Numbered from the stretch's first letter, positions 25,853-64,000 are shown. The stretch: DNA of 64,000 nucleotides from an uncultured Actinomycetes bacterium (GCA_963766295.1 CAVXYW010000002.1:204297-268296); one strand, 5' to 3'. The notes: generated by a model from the letters alone, not told the origin. Numbers and translations are program-made.

Positions 25853-27151
25853 TCAGCGGCGCACTATCTGCTGCACGGCCCTGTGAGCGAGGTTCATGCC
25901 TTCGTTCATGCCGCGGTCTTCCGGGTAGATCTGACCCGTCGTTGCGACGTACAAGCCCTTTATGTGGCTCACGACACCGGGTATCCCCGAGCTGTAGCCG
26001 ATCGTCACCAGTGGTGCTGCGTACGGAGTGCGGAAAGGGTTTACACCGAGCACCTGATCGGTTGAGAAACCCGGGAGCCAATCCGCCAGCGCATTGACCC
26101 ACTGGTCGGCCAGTTCGTTCACGTCCGCGGTGGCGACCGGATCGTCGGCCGTGAAATAGCGCCCGAGATAGGAAACGTGCCGCCCGTCGTAGTGGGACGC
26201 GGGGACGAGATTGGTCTGCTCGATCAACGCTCCGAAAGGGACTTCGTCGTCGCAGCAATTGGTCCAGTAGTAGCGACTTATCGGTTTGGTCGTCTCGACG
26301 ATCACGCAGATGGCTCCGAGCCGGCCGATCTCCGACCATCGGTAGTCACGCCGGTCCTCGGGGATCAGCGATGAGACTCCCGGCAGCTGTCCTGCGTACA
26401 ACACGGCGTCGGCCTCGATGGACTCAGCACCAACCTCGACGCCGATTACGCGATCTCCATCGAGGGCGATGCTGTCGACGGCCGCTTGCGTGCGAACCTT
26501 GGCTCCCAATCGCGCGAGCTCTGACGCGACGCCGTCGAACAGTTGCCGGAAGCCACCGCGGAGATACCCCAAGCGTTCGCCCCGCCAGGTTCGCGCTGCT
26601 GCACGCTGCCGGAAACGAGCCCACATCCACGAAGCCGGAACACGTTCCGACGCCATCCCGAACTTGAAGCGAAGCATCGGGTCCCAAATGGCTTCCATAG
26701 CGCGCTCGCCCGCGTTCGCAGTCAGCCAATCTCGCGCCGGCGTTTCGTCCAGCGATCGGTAGTCACGCGTCGCCGTGAGGCGAACGGTGCTGATACCGAG
26801 ACGTATCCGGTCCCTCAAGGGGAGCGGCCGGAACCGGAGAAGATCGATCGGAGAGGTGAAGGGCCAGAACTTCGCGCCCGTGAGGACACTGACGCTTGAG
26901 GGGTACCACTCGAGCCGGTCGGACAGTCCGAGCTCATCGATGAGGCGGATGATGCGCTCTTCGTTCGGGAAGATGTGGTGGTAGAAGCATTCGAGCGGGG
27001 TTCCGGCGACGGAGAAGCTGACGACAAGGCCGCCCAAGTTCTCGCTGCGCTCGAGCACGATCACCTCGTGCCCGGCTCTAGCCAGTTCGAGCGCAGCGGC
27101 GCATCCGCAGATCCCACCACCGATCACGACTACTTTCTTTTTCACCATCAC
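25853..27151 (-). CDS. NAD(P)/FAD-dependent oxidoreductase (amine-oxidase / phytoene-desaturase-like fold)
   Basis: 432 aa. The N-terminus 'KKVVVIGGGICGCAAALELARAGHEVIVLERSENLGG' is a classic dinucleotide-binding motif. Confidence 0.8.
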   Translation of the reverse strand: MMVKKKVVVIGGGICGCAAALELARAGHEVIVLERSENLGGLVVSFSVAGTPLECFYHHIFPNEERIIRLIDELGLSDRLEWYPSSVSVLTGAKFWPFTSPIDLLRFRPLPLRDRIRLGISTVRLTATRDYRSLDETPARDWLTANAGERAMEAIWDPMLRFKFGMASERVPASWMWARFRQRAAARTWRGERLGYLRGGFRQLFDGVASELARLGAKVRTQAAVDSIALDGDRVIGVEVGAESIEADAVLYAGQLPGVSSLIPEDRRDYRWSEIGRLGAICVIVETTKPISRYYWTNCCDDEVPFGALIEQTNLVPASHYDGRHVSYLGRYFTADDPVATADVNELADQWVNALADWLPGFSTDQVLGVNPFRTPYAAPLVTIGYSSGIPGVVSHIKGLYVATTGQIYPEDRGMNEGMNLAHRAVQQIVRR

Positions 27152-27243
27152 CCCGGAATTCAGTCGCGAGCGCTAGAAAGTATCCTCTCGCATCGAGGAA
27201 GCAGGCTGCGCCCGACCCTCGGCGAATATAGTGGCCACGAAAA

Positions 27244-27864
27244 ATGCCTCGAGACTTGCGAAAGATCCCATGGGACGTGCGTTATAAATTCGGAGCAAAG
27301 CTCGCCTCGGATCTGCGTCGGCTGTCCATCAAACTCACTCATCGTCATTGTCGGGTCGAGTTTCAGGGTCCGGTACGAATCGGTCCGGGGTTCGTCCTCG
27401 AGATTCCGGATCGTGGCGAGTTCGTCGTCGGCCCAGACGTAATCTTCCGGCGCGGCTTCGTCTGCGAGATCAGCGGGACCGGCCGGGTCGTCATCGGCGC
27501 CGGCACCACGTTCACGTCGAATGCGCTCATCCAGTGCAGCACATCGGTCGAGATCGGCGAGCGAAACGCGTTCGGCCAGGCTCTTCAGATCGCGGACGGA
27601 AGCCACAAGTTCCGAGATCTCACGACCCCGCCATTGGAACAGGGGTACAACTTCCGGCCGATCAAGATCGGTGACCACATCATGGTGCATTCGAAAGTCA
27701 CGATCGTGGCAAACGTCGGGGATTACGCCGTTGTTGGAGCGAACTCACTCGTCACAAAGGACGTACCGGCCTACTGTTTGGCTGGTGGTGTTCCTGCTCG
27801 CATCATCGAGTACTTCGGTCCAGAAGAACGGCGGCCGGTAGGGCTCGACATAAAGCGGGGATGA
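27244..27864 (+). CDS. left-handed beta-helix (hexapeptide-repeat) acyl/acetyltransferase
   Basis: Imperfect hexapeptide repeats, ending in 'IKIGDHIMVHSKVTIVANVGDYAVVGANSLVTKDVPAYCLAGGVPARIIEY', which is typical of sugar O-acetyltransferases. Confidence 0.85.
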   Translation: MPRDLRKIPWDVRYKFGAKLASDLRRLSIKLTHRHCRVEFQGPVRIGPGFVLEIPDRGEFVVGPDVIFRRGFVCEISGTGRVVIGAGTTFTSNALIQCSTSVEIGERNAFGQALQIADGSHKFRDLTTPPLEQGYNFRPIKIGDHIMVHSKVTIVANVGDYAVVGANSLVTKDVPAYCLAGGVPARIIEYFGPEERRPVGLDIKRG

Positions 27865-61927: not shown

Positions 61928-63004
61928 TTGTTGAAGCGGTATAGAACGCTCGTCTTGGTGTTATCGGTCACGTTGACGGCGACGGCCGTCCTCGTTTCTG
62001 CCCAGCTGTCCGACGAGCCAGAACCGCTGGGAAACGGCGTGTCGGTCACCGAGCGGTTTGCTCTCCCGCCGGAAGTCGTCGCTGATCGAGATATCTCATC
62101 TGTCGAATCTCCTGCACGGTATCGCCTGCGATCGAGCGGCGTAGCGACCACAGAAAGGCGTCCCCCGTTGGATCTGCCTGGGATCCGACCCACCGGATAT
62201 GAGCTCGCTGAGCCGGAAGACAGGACACCGGCGCCCCCACCCGCCTTCTTCCGCGCACTCTCCGGGTCGCTGGATGGCTCGAGAGCACCCATGTTTATCA
62301 GCCAATGCTCGTACAGCCACAGCCGGAGCGACGACCCGATGGTCTATCCCCGGCAGCCCGGCGCTTCACACTTGCATGACTTCTTCGGCAACGGGCATAC
62401 AGACGCTTTCTCGACGGATGACTCACTGCGCGAGGCCGGCACTACGACGTGTAGGAACTTCCACGGCGACTCCGCCGCCTATTGGGTTCCGGCGCTGTAT
62501 CAAGAGGGGAAGAGGGTAAAGCCGTCCTATCTGGATGCCTACTACACGGCGGGTGGCAAGAACACGCGGACAGTCGAGCCTTTTCCGCGCGGTCTGAAGA
62601 TCTTGCTGAAGGACGCCGAGGCCTCGAAGTGGCACTGCATGGCGCGTGGTGCCAGCGCGGCCTTCGAGGATCCGCCCAGCTGCCCCACCGGGGAGCATCT
62701 GGCTCTTCGGTTCACTTTTCCCGACTGCTGGGACGGAAAGTATCTCGACGTGCCCGATCACAGGTCGCACATGAAATACGCGGTGGGAATGAACTGTCCG
62801 GGGAGCCATCCCGTCCCCGTTCCCCAGCTAGTGATGTTTATCGGGTATCTGGACGCGGGTAAGGGGCGCGTTGATCTTGCGCCCCTGGATGATCCCTCCG
62901 CCCCTCACGCGGATTTCGTCAATTCTTGGGACCAGGACTTCCTCACGAGGTTCGTCCGGGACTGCATCAACTCCGGGGTCAACTGCGGGACGGTCGCTCC
63001 TTAG
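61928..63004 (+). CDS. secreted DUF1996 family protein (copy 1)
   Basis: Signal peptide MLKRYRTLVLVLSVTLTATAVLVSAQ. 'CSYSHSRSDDPMVYPRQPGASHLHDFFGN' and 'FPDCWDGKYLDVPDHRSHM' follow the DUF1996 pattern. AGGAG lies 6 nt before the TTG start. Confidence 0.8.
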   Translation: MLKRYRTLVLVLSVTLTATAVLVSAQLSDEPEPLGNGVSVTERFALPPEVVADRDISSVESPARYRLRSSGVATTERRPPLDLPGIRPTGYELAEPEDRTPAPPPAFFRALSGSLDGSRAPMFISQCSYSHSRSDDPMVYPRQPGASHLHDFFGNGHTDAFSTDDSLREAGTTTCRNFHGDSAAYWVPALYQEGKRVKPSYLDAYYTAGGKNTRTVEPFPRGLKILLKDAEASKWHCMARGASAAFEDPPSCPTGEHLALRFTFPDCWDGKYLDVPDHRSHMKYAVGMNCPGSHPVPVPQLVMFIGYLDAGKGRVDLAPLDDPSAPHADFVNSWDQDFLTRFVRDCINSGVNCGTVAP

Positions 63005-63109
63005 CCCGGCCGCTTCGAGGCCGGGAACGATTCAAGCCGGCCCTCGACATGCCGATGGCAATCACGTGTCGACCAGTTTGCCTTTGTGCCGAACGCTCGT
63101 TCGCGTCTC

Positions 63110-64000
63110 GTGAAGCGAGTCTGGACCGCGTCCCTAATAATGCTGGTCCTTGCCGGGCCGGTGATACTTACCGGCAGCGCATCGGGTCTCAGCATCGATC
63201 TGACCCGGTTGTGGCCGTTCAAACAGGCCCCGGCGCAGGCTGTAATGCCAACTCCTTCGCCTACGGATGCTCCCGGCACCCAACCAGGGACCTACGAGCC
63301 GGCCGAGCCCGGCGATCGATTGGGTCCGGGAAAACCGAGCATGAACCGGGTCATGCTGGGAATGCTCGATGGTCCGCCCTCGTTCGTCAGCCGGTGCAGC
63401 TACAGCCACAGCGCGAACGATGATCCGATCGTCTTCCCGTCACAACCCGGCGCCTCGCACTTGCACGATTTCTTCGGAAATAAGGCGACCGATGCATTCA
63501 GCTCAGACGACTCCCTGAGAAACGGCGGCCAAACGACGTGTGCCGTTCGTGGGGACAGTTCGGCTTATTGGGTGCCGGCACTTTACGAGAACGGCGAGTA
63601 CGCCCAGCCCGGCTCCATCGAGGCGTACTACCAGGCAGCCGGGAAAGACTTCCGGCGCGTTGAACCATTTCCGCAAGGGTTGAAGATGTTGGTCAAAGAC
63701 AGTCAGGCCTATATGTGGTTCTGCGTAGCACAGGGATCGAAGGGATGGTCCTCAAAGACGCCGCCACGTTGTCCGCAGGGAGAGCACCTTCAGTTAGAGA
63801 TCCGTTTCCCCGATTGCTGGGACGGTAAGTATCTGGACGTACCCGATCACCGCAGTCATATGGCCTACTCGTTGAACGGGTCTTGTCCCACTTCGCACCC
63901 AGTGCCGCTCACGGAACTCAAGATCTTCGTTAACTACCCAACAGCGCACGGCGGAGACGTGATACTCGCGCCCCTCTTCGCACCATCGAATCCGCACGCA
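63110..64000 (+). CDS. secreted DUF1996 family protein (copy 2; runs off the right edge)
   Basis: Hand translation gives VKRVWTASLIMLVLAGPVILTGSASG... then 'CSYSHSANDDPIVFPSQPGASHLHDFFGN...FPDCWDGKYLDVPDHRSHMAYS...'. There is no stop before 64000, so it is missing from the ORF track. The start (GTG 63110) is uncertain. Confidence 0.75.
   Translation, partial: MKRVWTASLIMLVLAGPVILTGSASGLSIDLTRLWPFKQAPAQAVMPTPSPTDAPGTQPGTYEPAEPGDRLGPGKPSMNRVMLGMLDGPPSFVSRCSYSHSANDDPIVFPSQPGASHLHDFFGNKATDAFSSDDSLRNGGQTTCAVRGDSSAYWVPALYENGEYAQPGSIEAYYQAAGKDFRRVEPFPQGLKMLVKDSQAYMWFCVAQGSKGWSSKTPPRCPQGEHLQLEIRFPDCWDGKYLDVPDHRSHMAYSLNGSCPTSHPVPLTELKIFVNYPTAHGGDVILAPLFAPSNPHA

Follow-up and report, generated by a model that had tools for sequence, protein, structure and literature searches.

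A glycan-assembly locus without a flippase candidate that joins an ABC exporter, a Wzy_C-family protein and a tyrosine-kinase co-polymerase in uncultured Actinomycetota

We analyzed a stretch of 64,000 nucleotides from an uncultured Actinomycetes bacterium (GCA_963766295.1 CAVXYW010000002.1:204297-268296; hereafter the window, with positions counted from its first letter) and focused on a cluster of around 36 kb, the glycan-assembly genes that are tightly packed from 27.2 kb to its end. They encode a WbaP-type initiating enzyme (a phosphoglycosyl transferase, PGT), the ATP-binding cassette (ABC) exporter Wzm/Wzt, a Wzy_C-family membrane protein, a type 2 polysaccharide co-polymerase fused to a bacterial tyrosine kinase (PCP-2 and BY-kinase), and a DUF4012 protein. 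An earlier note on this DNA had pointed to the mixture of ABC-exporter, Wzy_C and PCP/BY-kinase genes, and the mixture is real. The gene content, the absence of a flippase candidate, the conserved linkage of the genes, the operonic linkage of BY-kinase and Wzm/Wzt genes elsewhere, and the cassette-like centre of the locus are direct observations. The reading that we tentatively favor, and that we hold to be just short of probable, is that of one undecaprenyl-linked pathway, in which a glycan is primed by the PGT, built and methyl-capped in the cytoplasm, exported by Wzm/Wzt, and ligated en bloc by the Wzy_C protein, with the PCP/BY-kinase and DUF4012 proteins as an envelope module. Judging from the families encoded, the product would most likely be a methylated, deoxy-sugar-containing surface glycan. 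The genes on which this reading turns are the following.

43931-45265, minus strand: Wzt ABC ATPase (ABC_tran, 85 bits)
45265-46317, minus strand: Wzm ABC-2 permease (ABC2_membrane, 64 bits), with a true start probably near 46137
47438-49045, plus strand: Wzy_C-family polytopic membrane protein (Wzy_C, 40 bits, over the cut-off)
56691-58085, minus strand: WbaP/WcaJ-type polyprenyl-phosphate hexose-1-phosphate transferase, the PGT (Bac_transf, 210 bits; TIGR03025, 354 bits, over the cut-off)
58325-59740, plus strand: fusion of a PCP-2 type Wzz and a BY-kinase (Wzz, GNVR and AAA_31; TIGR01007, 187 bits, over the cut-off), with two transmembrane (TM) segments
59763-61796, plus strand: DUF4012 protein (DUF4012, 86 bits), with a TM helix at 44-62

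The open reading frames (ORFs) of the window were taken as the longest non-overlapping ones with coding-type GC content at third codon positions, and were scanned with the profiles of Pfam and NCBIfam. Every family named in the earlier note was recovered at its place: the PGT, Wzm/Wzt, the Wzy_C protein, the Wzz-BY-kinase fusion and DUF4012, as well as WecB, an RfbF-like enzyme (whose match is under the NCBIfam cut-off), two short-chain dehydrogenases/reductases (SDR) and an acyltransferase with a left-handed beta-helix (LbH). Its counts were also correct, with five GT2, five GT4, one GT17 and one GT-C glycosyltransferases, and eight methyltransferase domains. Seven of the latter are above Pfam thresholds, and the eighth (29493-30392), weak in Pfam, is backed by paralogy. 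The boundaries needed adjustment: the start at 27.2 kb stands, nothing evident connects the FAD amine-oxidase gene (25853-27151) with the locus, and the locus reaches the end of the window.

No Wzx, GtrA-like or LCP candidate was found anywhere in the 64-kb window by Pfam profiles and hydrophobic-segment scans, and the same had been noted before for Wzx/MOP-flippase-like and LCP-like ORFs. Six ORFs of the whole window (read stop to stop) have at least three hydrophobic segments, and they encode a purine permease, the GT-C enzyme, Wzm, the Wzy_C protein, the PGT, and the Wzz/BY-kinase. The other large ORFs, located between 1 and 25 kb, are unrelated and include a subtilase, a luciferase-like oxidoreductase, Lon, a pyruvate:ferredoxin oxidoreductase, the purine permease, VanW, extracytoplasmic function (ECF) sigma factors, and WhiB. 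Pfam revealed no rml families in the window, which also has no WecA-type (PNPT) initiator, the sole initiator being the WbaP-type PGT. These absences of flippase, initiator and LCP genes concern the 64-kb window, not the rest of the genome.

To study the conservation of the locus, all window proteins were searched by tblastn in the contigs of Actinomycetota relatives, i.e., contigs carrying homologues of the Wzy_C or GT17 proteins. The architecture of the window is kept in a metagenome-assembled genome (MAG) of an uncultured Actinomycetes (loci L001/L008), in an Actinomycetota MAG (L007), in L006, and in a 13.5-kb JGI contig. Hence, at least three more lineages of uncultured Actinomycetota, all without Wzx, retain the whole gene order, and the chance juxtaposition that the synteny comparison proposed in the earlier note might have revealed is not borne out. 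The common order is (DUF1996)-DUF4012-Wzz/BY-kinase, divergent from PGT-GT2-GT4-variable glycosyltransferases-Wzy_C, where Wzy_C is in turn divergent from (GT17)-Wzm-Wzt-GT2-GT4-methyltransferase-nucleotidyltransferase-SDR-GT4-methyltransferase. We found no flippase candidate in L001/L008, L007, L006 or the JGI contig, whose polytopic ORFs are Wzy_C, PGT and Wzm only; of the two ORFs left unassigned in L007, one is a GT4 and the other a Methyltransf_24. The relatives differ from the window by around 20-40% in protein sequence, and conserved proteins are 60-84% identical. Identity to the window is 80-81% for the PGT (in the relatives of the same architecture), 76-79% for the Wzz/BY-kinase, 62-63% for DUF4012 (L007 and L008), 66-70% for Wzt, 81-84% for the SDR at 39289-40341, 40-58% for Wzy_C and 38-69% for GT17. 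In every variant, the Wzy_C gene is divergent from the Wzm-Wzt (or GT17-Wzm-Wzt) operon, and the two therefore have a common promoter region. WecB is present at this position in L002 and L003, and absent in L001, L007 and L006.

Two other sets of matches lie outside this conserved arrangement. A Wzy_C relative of 27% identity (P0006, in L004) was excluded from the synteny; it sits among haem and housekeeping genes, where it adjoins URO-D and an amine-oxidase-family (HemY-like) gene (L004, 5696-8846). An amine-oxidase-family gene is also found at the edge of the window locus (25853-27151), but the likeness may be coincidence. The genome scan anchored on GT17 returned mostly unrelated GT17 genes in Proteobacteria, Chlamydiae and Pelagibacteraceae, and the locus itself only in L007 and L008. 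A second GT17 paralogue, of 37% identity (P0013), is located elsewhere on the source contig, which hints at another glycan locus in the genome.

The comparison of close relatives indicates that the centre of the locus (Wzy_C and glycosyltransferases) is exchanged as a block between conserved arms, because L002 is close to the window in the arm and distant in the cassette, while L125 keeps the centre. Nucleotide identity between L002 and the window is 85% over 8.1 kb (39398-47463, the SDR through the end of WecB), and the homology stops exactly at the WecB/Wzy_C junction. The arm proteins of L002 are 86-96% identical to those of the window, whereas its Wzy_C is 57% and the next GT4 47% identical. 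L125, a contig that is about as divergent overall (83% nucleotide identity), shares with the window the centre between Wzy_C and the PGT (83% identity for Wzy_C and 87% for GT17). Wzy_C is the first gene of a swappable cassette, and block exchange between arms is the pattern of capsule and O-antigen serotype loci. The GC content, 0.62-0.64 upstream, goes down to 0.57-0.60 over 44-56 kb, a common trait of exchangeable glycan loci.

Wzm and Wzt are encoded by adjacent genes. Wzt has a C-terminal extension of around 190 amino acids, which matches Wzt_C with 27.8 bits for a Pfam cut-off of 30.4, and this domain is significant in the orthologues of the actinobacterial relatives. In the Protein Data Bank (PDB), the nucleotide-binding domain of Wzt is closest to the Wzt of Aquifex (215 bits), and a sequence search with the C-terminal part gave no match there. 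The PGT is the only initiating enzyme in the locus (80-97% identity in relatives), and its gene is adjacent to those of the Wzz/BY-kinase and DUF4012 (56691-61796), an arrangement kept in L007 and L008. The BY-kinase has a Walker A motif and a C-terminal tyrosine cluster (DYAYYYQY). The DUF4012 protein, whose one TM helix is N-terminal and whose extracytoplasmic part is large, is the constant partner of the PCP gene; its single-sequence structure model has a pLDDT of 38. We recognized no S-layer-like gene in the window, where the DUF4012 and DUF1996 proteins are the sole exported proteins nearby.

The Wzy_C protein has around 11-13 TM segments and is rare: a search among 5.8 billion clustered proteins identified six homologues. 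Its residues R331 and H392 are invariant. Its AlphaFold model, made from a six-sequence alignment, has a pLDDT of 65, and Foldseek found a single weak match in the PDB, to FtsW (E 1.5e-3, TM-score 0.27-0.36). Such a match would fit a shared SEDS/WaaL-like fold class, and does not discriminate between a ligase and a polymerase. PDB sequence searches with the Wzy_C profile and with DUF4012 gave no match. The Pfam family Wzy_C also includes WaaL ligases and the PglL/PilO/WsaB O-oligosaccharyltransferases. For this reason, membership in the family is no marker of a polymerase, and the earlier statement that Wzy_C plus PCP/BY-kinase implies block polymerization does not hold. We propose that the protein is an en-bloc glycan transferase (ligase), although a polymerase role is also possible.

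To assess the association of kinase and exporter in other phyla, we used the Wzm alignment as a query and retained the 80 best metagenome loci (45-57% identity), which are top-scoring matches and not phylogenetically independent. Their ORFs were searched with jackhmmer and phmmer profiles. Among the 25 loci with at least 5 kb upstream of Wzm, a co-directional Wzz/BY-kinase was found in 11, Wza in 11, and a Wzy_C-like gene in six; with at least 8 kb upstream (15 loci), the numbers are nine, eight and five. In seven loci, the kinase gene ends -3 to 192 bp from the start of Wzm, and some of the stop and start codons overlap. The loci L043 (from an Acidobacteria MAG) and L044 (taxon not given) have, on one strand, the order Wza-Wzc-TPR-Wzy_C-antiterminator-Wzm-Wzt, followed by methyltransferases and glycosyltransferases; their Wzc consists of Wzz, GNVR and BY-kinase, and their Wzt carries Wzt_C. 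Other loci are ordered TPR-Wzy_C-Wza-Wzc...Wzm, and between the last two lie a UXS-like SDR, a GT2-methyltransferase fusion (L061 and L092 are diderm loci with such a fusion) and, just upstream of Wzm, a PMT_2-like GT-C of around 520 amino acids. These unusual parts are the same as those in the left block of the window locus. In L042, methyltransferases and glycosyltransferases come after Wzm-Wzt, and neither PCP nor Wzy_C is nearby. A PGT was found in just two of the Wzm-anchored loci, and no Wzx-like ORF stood out in them, as assessed in the diderm loci by hydrophobicity counts and sampled Pfam scans.

Several further observations concern these loci. A gene for an UpxY/RfaH-type antiterminator is found directly upstream of Wzm in L043 (9273-9821) and L044 (9454-10008), which would imply control of the exporter and glycosyltransferase genes by long-operon antitermination. 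L080 has a short Wzz/BY-kinase of 525 amino acids, then, after 3 nt, Wzm, a methyltransferase, Wzt, a GT4, another methyltransferase and nonulosonic-acid genes. At 15223-18805, its CMP-nonulosonic-acid genes (cytidylyltransferase/HAD, NeuB and NeuC-like) continue the kinase-Wzm-Wzt operon, so that one export chassis seems to handle glycans of different chemistry. The Wzm subfamily (window 45265-46137; P0148, P0159, P0180, P0231, P0243) shows a cross-taxon identity that is unusually high for the permease of a glycan exporter: identities of 72-96% in its own lineage are followed by a plateau of thousands of proteins at 52-60%, where the few members with a label come from MAGs called Ca. Fervidibacter, Acidobacteria and Bathyarchaeia. 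This suggests either a shared feature of the substrates or frequent transfer. Finally, a UXS/ArnA-like SDR of the window (22089-23111, minus strand) has 360-bit matches to the SDR encoded between Wzc and Wzm in L092, L075 and L110. It lies outside the region flagged in the earlier note, with regulators between it and the locus, but may still be part of the same glycan system.

The remaining genes of the locus, from left to right, are the following.

27244-27864, plus strand: LbH (hexapeptide) O-acetyltransferase, WbbJ-like (Hexapep weak in Pfam; NCBIfam WbbJ-like, 53 bits, under the cut-off)
27865-29616, minus strand: fusion of a GT2 (Glycos_transf_2, residues 52-151) and an S-adenosylmethionine (SAM) methyltransferase (Methyltransf_23/12/25, residues 402-501)
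29493-30392, plus strand: methyltransferase (weak Pfam match; 50% identity over 232 amino acids to the product of 41015-41803)
30399-31211, minus strand: SAM methyltransferase (Methyltransf_11, 71 bits)
31439-32272, plus strand: SAM methyltransferase (Methyltransf_11, 61 bits)
32269-33378, minus strand: SAM methyltransferase (Methyltransf_23, 128 bits)
33186-35120, plus strand: GT-C fold glycosyltransferase, PMT_2/PMT-like (PMT_2, 34.5 bits; PMT, 31 bits), with around 15 hydrophobic segments
35045-35893, plus strand: SAM methyltransferase (Methyltransf_11, 67 bits)
35914-36864, plus strand: GT2 with two C-terminal TM helices at 248-266 and 288-306 (Glycos_transf_2, 94 bits; generic GT2 only in NCBIfam)
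36834-37985, plus strand: SAM methyltransferase kept in relatives (76-78% identity in L001 and L006)
38003-39292, minus strand: GT4 of the conserved arm (60-65% identity in L001, L006 and L007)
39289-40341, minus strand: NDP-hexose 4,6-dehydratase-like SDR of the conserved arm (GDP_Man_Dehyd/Epimerase; LegB-like and dTDP-glucose-dehydratase-like; 81-95% identity in relatives)
40251-40958, minus strand: RfbF-like sugar-1-phosphate (cytidylyl)transferase (NTP_transferase; TIGR02623, 201 bits, under the NCBIfam cut-off of 300 bits; 77-93% identity in relatives)
41015-41803, plus strand: methyltransferase (Methyltransf_23), adjoining the nucleotidyltransferase in all relatives
41800-42744, minus strand: GT2 (Pfam)
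42812-43924, plus strand: GT4 of the conserved arm (Pfam), kept in relatives
46185-47459, plus strand: WecB UDP-GlcNAc 2-epimerase (TIGR00236, 329 bits), with a true start probably downstream of 46317
49082-50182, plus strand: GT4 of the variable cassette (47-81% identity in relatives)
50210-51226, minus strand: GT17 of the variable cassette (Glyco_transf_17, 80 bits, E 1.6e-22; 38-87% identity in relatives)
51279-52322, minus strand: GT2 of the variable cassette (Pfam)
52319-53551, minus strand: SDR epimerase/dehydratase with an insertion (Epimerase domain in two stretches; GalE-like and TviC-like)
53576-54673, minus strand: GT4 without a counterpart in L001/L008, found in L125
54670-55893, minus strand: GT4 conserved beside the PGT, in adaptor-type position (Pfam and relatives)
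55737-56639, minus strand: GT2 conserved beside the PGT, fused to the GT4 in L007 and the JGI contig
61928-63004, plus strand: secreted DUF1996 protein (Pfam); DUF1996 also flanks DUF4012 in L008
63005-64000, plus strand: second DUF1996 gene, in tandem with the previous one and running off the window

Among these genes, the GT2-methyltransferase fusion is a candidate for a chain-modifying or chain-terminating enzyme, and which of the eight methyltransferase domains, if any, terminates the chain is not distinguishable from sequence. The GT-C enzyme probably decorates or joins the glycan outside the cytoplasm. The TM-anchored GT2 at 35914-36864 is a possible polyprenyl-phosphate-sugar synthase that would be the partner of the GT-C enzyme. 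A decoration system of the GtrB-GtrA-GT-C type was considered for the pair, but it is no more than a suggestion, since the small flippase is missing and NCBIfam recognizes the GT2 only generically. The two Methyltransf_23 genes at 29493-30392 and 41015-41803 are 50%-identical paralogues, and a stretch of 173 nt, of around 72% DNA identity, is common to the window (29633-29801) and the L002 orthologue of 41015-41803. Since this DNA-level alignment persists between the paralogous genes, a duplication inside the locus may have given the pair.

Using the family membership of the proteins, we infer how a single pathway could proceed. The PGT would put hexose-1-phosphate on undecaprenyl phosphate, and the GT2 (55737-56639) and GT4 (54670-55893) next to it would build the adaptor. 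The chain would then be extended in the cytoplasm by cassette-specific and arm-encoded glycosyltransferases, with one sugar donor supplied by the RfbF-like nucleotidyltransferase and the 4,6-dehydratase of the arm. Methyltransferases would O-methylate the glycan, one of them capping the non-reducing end. The finished chain would be recognized by the C-terminal domain of Wzt and exported by Wzm/Wzt, after which the Wzy_C protein would move the completed glycan from undecaprenyl diphosphate to an acceptor, in the way of WaaL or WsaB; a protein, a lipid and a wall glycan are all conceivable acceptors. Extracytoplasmic decorations would be added by the GT-C enzyme, possibly fed by the TM-anchored GT2. 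Finally, the Wzz/BY-kinase and DUF4012 proteins would couple export and transfer to the envelope, with tyrosine phosphorylation tuning the output, and take the place that Wzc-Wza has in the related diderm loci.

A single pathway is favored because the locus has one initiator and one exporter, and no Wzx, GtrA-like or other polytopic candidate in 64 kb; because the order is conserved without Wzx in relatives and the promoter region of Wzy_C and Wzm-Wzt is common; because orthologous Wzt carry Wzt_C and methyltransferases abound, as in cap-terminated ABC pathways; because the linkage of kinase and Wzm recurs across phyla; and because the combination of a WbaP-type PGT, Wzm/Wzt, a methyl cap and a Wzy_C transferase has a characterized precedent in the clusters for S-layer glycans (slg; PMC2943079). 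Hence, between the hybrid pathway and the two polymers that the earlier note had left as options, the evidence leans toward one pathway. Several points weigh against it. A Wzx, an initiator of the WecA/TagO type and LCP ligases could sit elsewhere in the genome. For one polymer, 12 glycosyltransferases and eight methyltransferase domains are a large number, the window has no evident S-layer or other target gene for the proposed ligation, and the Wzt_C match of its own Wzt is under the Pfam threshold. The Wzy_C gene co-varies with the glycosyltransferases of the cassette, a behavior commoner among repeat-unit polymerases than among ligases of the WaaL type. As for the other phyla, the lack of phylogenetic independence among the 80 best-scoring loci and the exclusion of diderm flippases by hydrophobicity counts and sampled Pfam scans only also reduce the weight of the comparison.

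The bipartite variability of the locus, with an arm shared with L002 up to the WecB/Wzy_C break and a centre kept in L125, might instead reflect two polymers, which is the main alternative, though a rather unlikely one. The arm would then encode a conserved, methylated, ABC-exported backbone started by a WecA/TagO-type enzyme encoded elsewhere, and the PGT, cassette, Wzy_C and PCP a strain-variable repeat-unit polymer, flipped by a flippase encoded elsewhere and polymerized outside; the GT-C enzyme, whose gene is present, may join the chains as in the rhamnose-rich wall polysaccharides of lactococci and enterococci. Consistent with this, the Wzm/Wzt and methyltransferase module stands alone in L042, the PGT-Wzz-DUF4012 module of Bifidobacterium longum is accompanied by Wzx and Wzy and lacks an ABC transporter (PMC5412050), and bipartite loci with ABC, polymerase and GT-C genes have been characterized in Firmicutes (PMC10821137, PMC7188991, PMC9574508). 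However, the characterized dual-chain loci have their own Wzx-type flippase, whereas neither the window nor any of the four to five related loci yielded a candidate. Moreover, the locus has just one initiating enzyme, Wzy_C is always promoter-linked to Wzm/Wzt and not to the PGT operon, and the translational coupling of BY-kinase and Wzm in other phyla is hard to explain if the kinase serves a Wzy-dependent branch only.

It is also conceivable, though improbable, that Wzm/Wzt replaces Wzx in a true hybrid, exporting short, capped, undecaprenyl-diphosphate-linked blocks that the Wzy_C protein polymerizes under the chain-length control of the PCP/BY-kinase. This would account for a locus that has no Wzx but does have the complete trio of PGT, Wzy_C and PCP-2/BY-kinase, the tyrosine cluster of the latter being intact, for the co-variation of Wzy_C with the cassette glycosyltransferases, as in a repeat-unit-specific polymerase, and for the kinase-Wzm-Wzt operons found elsewhere. 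Yet the carbohydrate-binding C-terminal domain of Wzt and the abundant capping-type methyltransferases point to the export of finished chains. A cap at the non-reducing end leaves Wzy growth at the reducing end unblocked, but every block would bear an internal cap. We know of no glycan with this architecture and, to our knowledge, no Wzy polymerase is known to be supplied by a Wzm/Wzt transporter. That the genes are neighbors only through common ancestry or the general clustering of envelope genes, and belong to unrelated pathways without functional coupling, is very improbable. Polysaccharide genes do tend to cluster, every module is individually well known, and the actinobacterial relatives may be close enough for passively inherited synteny; but the order survives the exchange of the centre by recombination and is found in compact 13-kb versions. 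In addition, the combination recurs in the Acidobacteria MAG and in many unclassified metagenome contigs, in different orders on one strand, and kinase and Wzm genes overlap or nearly abut in metagenome contigs.

Directly upstream of the locus (23210-25830, plus strand), the window encodes an ECF sigma factor, a zf-HC2 anti-sigma factor, a WhiB-family protein and a membrane protein of 366 amino acids with a faint MucB/RseB_C match. This block could be an envelope-stress regulator of the glycan locus. The sole tRNA of the window, a tRNA-Glu (UUC) at 8564-8637 on the minus strand, is not beside the locus, and there is thus no sign of a tRNA-targeted island insertion.

Beyond the single-pathway reading of this locus, the data raise the broader idea, somewhat unlikely in our view, of a widespread type of pathway in which a PCP-2/BY-kinase works directly with Wzm/Wzt and a Wzy_C-family transferase, without Wzx, and in which DUF4012 has the envelope-spanning role of Wza in this monoderm lineage. 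If true, it would undo the textbook division of assembly into ABC-dependent and Wzy-dependent routes, and the window would offer the first complete parts list from a monoderm. Reviews present surface-glycan assembly as separate routes, with BY-kinase co-polymerases in the Wzy route (PMC12220298). A kinase gene beside, and sometimes overlapping, the gene of an ABC exporter without a flippase suggests that modules combine more freely than this scheme allows. If this is confirmed, annotation pipelines in which one marker gene decides the type of pathway need revising, the actinobacterial DUF4012 family gains a testable role, and the system can be used to ask what a BY-kinase co-polymerase does when extracytoplasmic polymerization is not needed. 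The swappable centre makes the glycan a likely target of phages or of antigenic variation in an uncultured soil/freshwater lineage.

The earlier note knew of no characterized cluster that matches the locus. For the whole set this stands: a literature search on DUF4012 and on actinobacterial clusters of O-antigen ligase, Wzt and tyrosine kinase returned no characterized match. For the parts it does not, since PGT, Wzm/Wzt, methyl cap and Wzy_C are known from the slg clusters (PMC2943079), and PGT-Wzz-DUF4012 is an ordinary actinobacterial module for exopolysaccharides (EPS) (PMC5412050). As far as the sequences indicate, the new element is the recurrent tight coupling of a BY-kinase co-polymerase with Wzm/Wzt without Wzx, for which we found no characterized counterpart. 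A 2025 review assigns PCP-2 kinases to the Wzy route and describes ABC-dependent capsules only in Gram-negatives (PMC12220298), and cyanobacteria hold genes of all three main EPS assembly routes (PMC4594306). Cytoplasmic systems such as the mycobacterial methylated polysaccharides (methylglucose lipopolysaccharide, MGLP, or methylmannose polysaccharide, MMP) or those like the glycopeptidolipids (GPL) were set aside, given that an exporter, a PGT and extracytoplasmic enzymes are present.

Among systems with a related combination, group 2 capsules (KpsMT-KpsE-KpsD) also associate an ABC-2 exporter with a PCP-family protein, plus an outer membrane polysaccharide export (OPX) protein in diderms, but KpsE is a PCP-3 without a kinase domain and the system is not monoderm. 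In the mixed capsule and O-antigen region of Vibrio cholerae NRT36S, a wzm insertion abolishes the capsule and the region also has wza-wzb-wzc (PMC1847822); unlike the window, it also carries wzx and wzy, in a host that is not monoderm. The EPS and capsule locus of B. longum 105-A has DUF4012 between the priming glycosyltransferase and wzz genes (PMC5412050). It shares with the window an actinobacterial host, the conserved adjacency of PGT, DUF4012 and Wzz, and variable central glycosyltransferases and polymerase. It differs in having wzx and wzy, no methyltransferase battery and, according to its authors, no ABC-transporter homologues in the locus (PMC5412050). Dual-chain loci for rhamnose-rich wall polysaccharides are known in Lactococcus, Streptococcus thermophilus and Enterococcus (PMC10821137, PMC9746298, PMC7188991, PMC9574508). 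Like the window, they are large single loci with a conserved ABC-dependent part and a strain-variable, exchanged part, and with GT-C enzymes acting outside the membrane. In contrast to the window, they have a Wzx-type flippase, rml genes, LCP ligases, and a variable chain started on undecaprenyl monophosphate by a GT2 (WpsA/B), and they have no BY-kinase-fused PCP beside the ABC transporter. Hence, of their hallmarks, Wzx, rml and LCP are absent from the window, while a GT-C gene and a TM-anchored GT2 are present.

In Escherichia coli O8/O9a, the initiator is WecA, WbdD adds a methyl cap, Wzt has a carbohydrate-binding domain, and WaaL is the ligase. The parts predicted for the window are the same as far as cytoplasmic chain completion, methyl termination, recognition by the Wzt C-terminus, Wzm/Wzt export and ligation by a Wzy_C-family protein are concerned. 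The differences are the WbaP-type initiator of the window, the acceptor, which is the lipid A-core that monoderms lack, the location of waaL in the core locus without co-variation with the O-antigen genes, and the absence of a BY-kinase from the E. coli pathway.

The slg clusters of Geobacillus stearothermophilus NRS 2004/3a and Paenibacillus alvei encode the WbaP-type PGT WsaP, Wzm/Wzt, WsaE, a glycosyltransferase-methyltransferase fusion that caps the chain by O-methylation, and WsaB, a Wzy_C-domain protein for the final en-bloc transfer, beside which is a separate TPR protein, WsaA (PMC2943079). They lack PCP/BY-kinase, DUF4012, GT-C and GT17 genes, and their methyltransferases are far fewer. 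Where they use rml genes, the window has the RfbF-like/dehydratase pair, and they target an S-layer gene located nearby, of which none was seen in the window. Beyond the Pfam domain, the Wzy_C protein of the window has no detectable similarity to its slg counterpart, and O-oligosaccharyltransferase activity is putative. WsaE and the product of 27865-29616 have the same pair of domains in a different order. Like the window, the slg clusters bring together in one locus of a Gram-positive host a PGT, Wzm/Wzt, a glycosyltransferase-methyltransferase fusion and Wzy_C, with no Wzx, and they show that a WbaP-type PGT can start an ABC-transporter-dependent pathway, as an exception to WecA-type initiation (PMC2943079).

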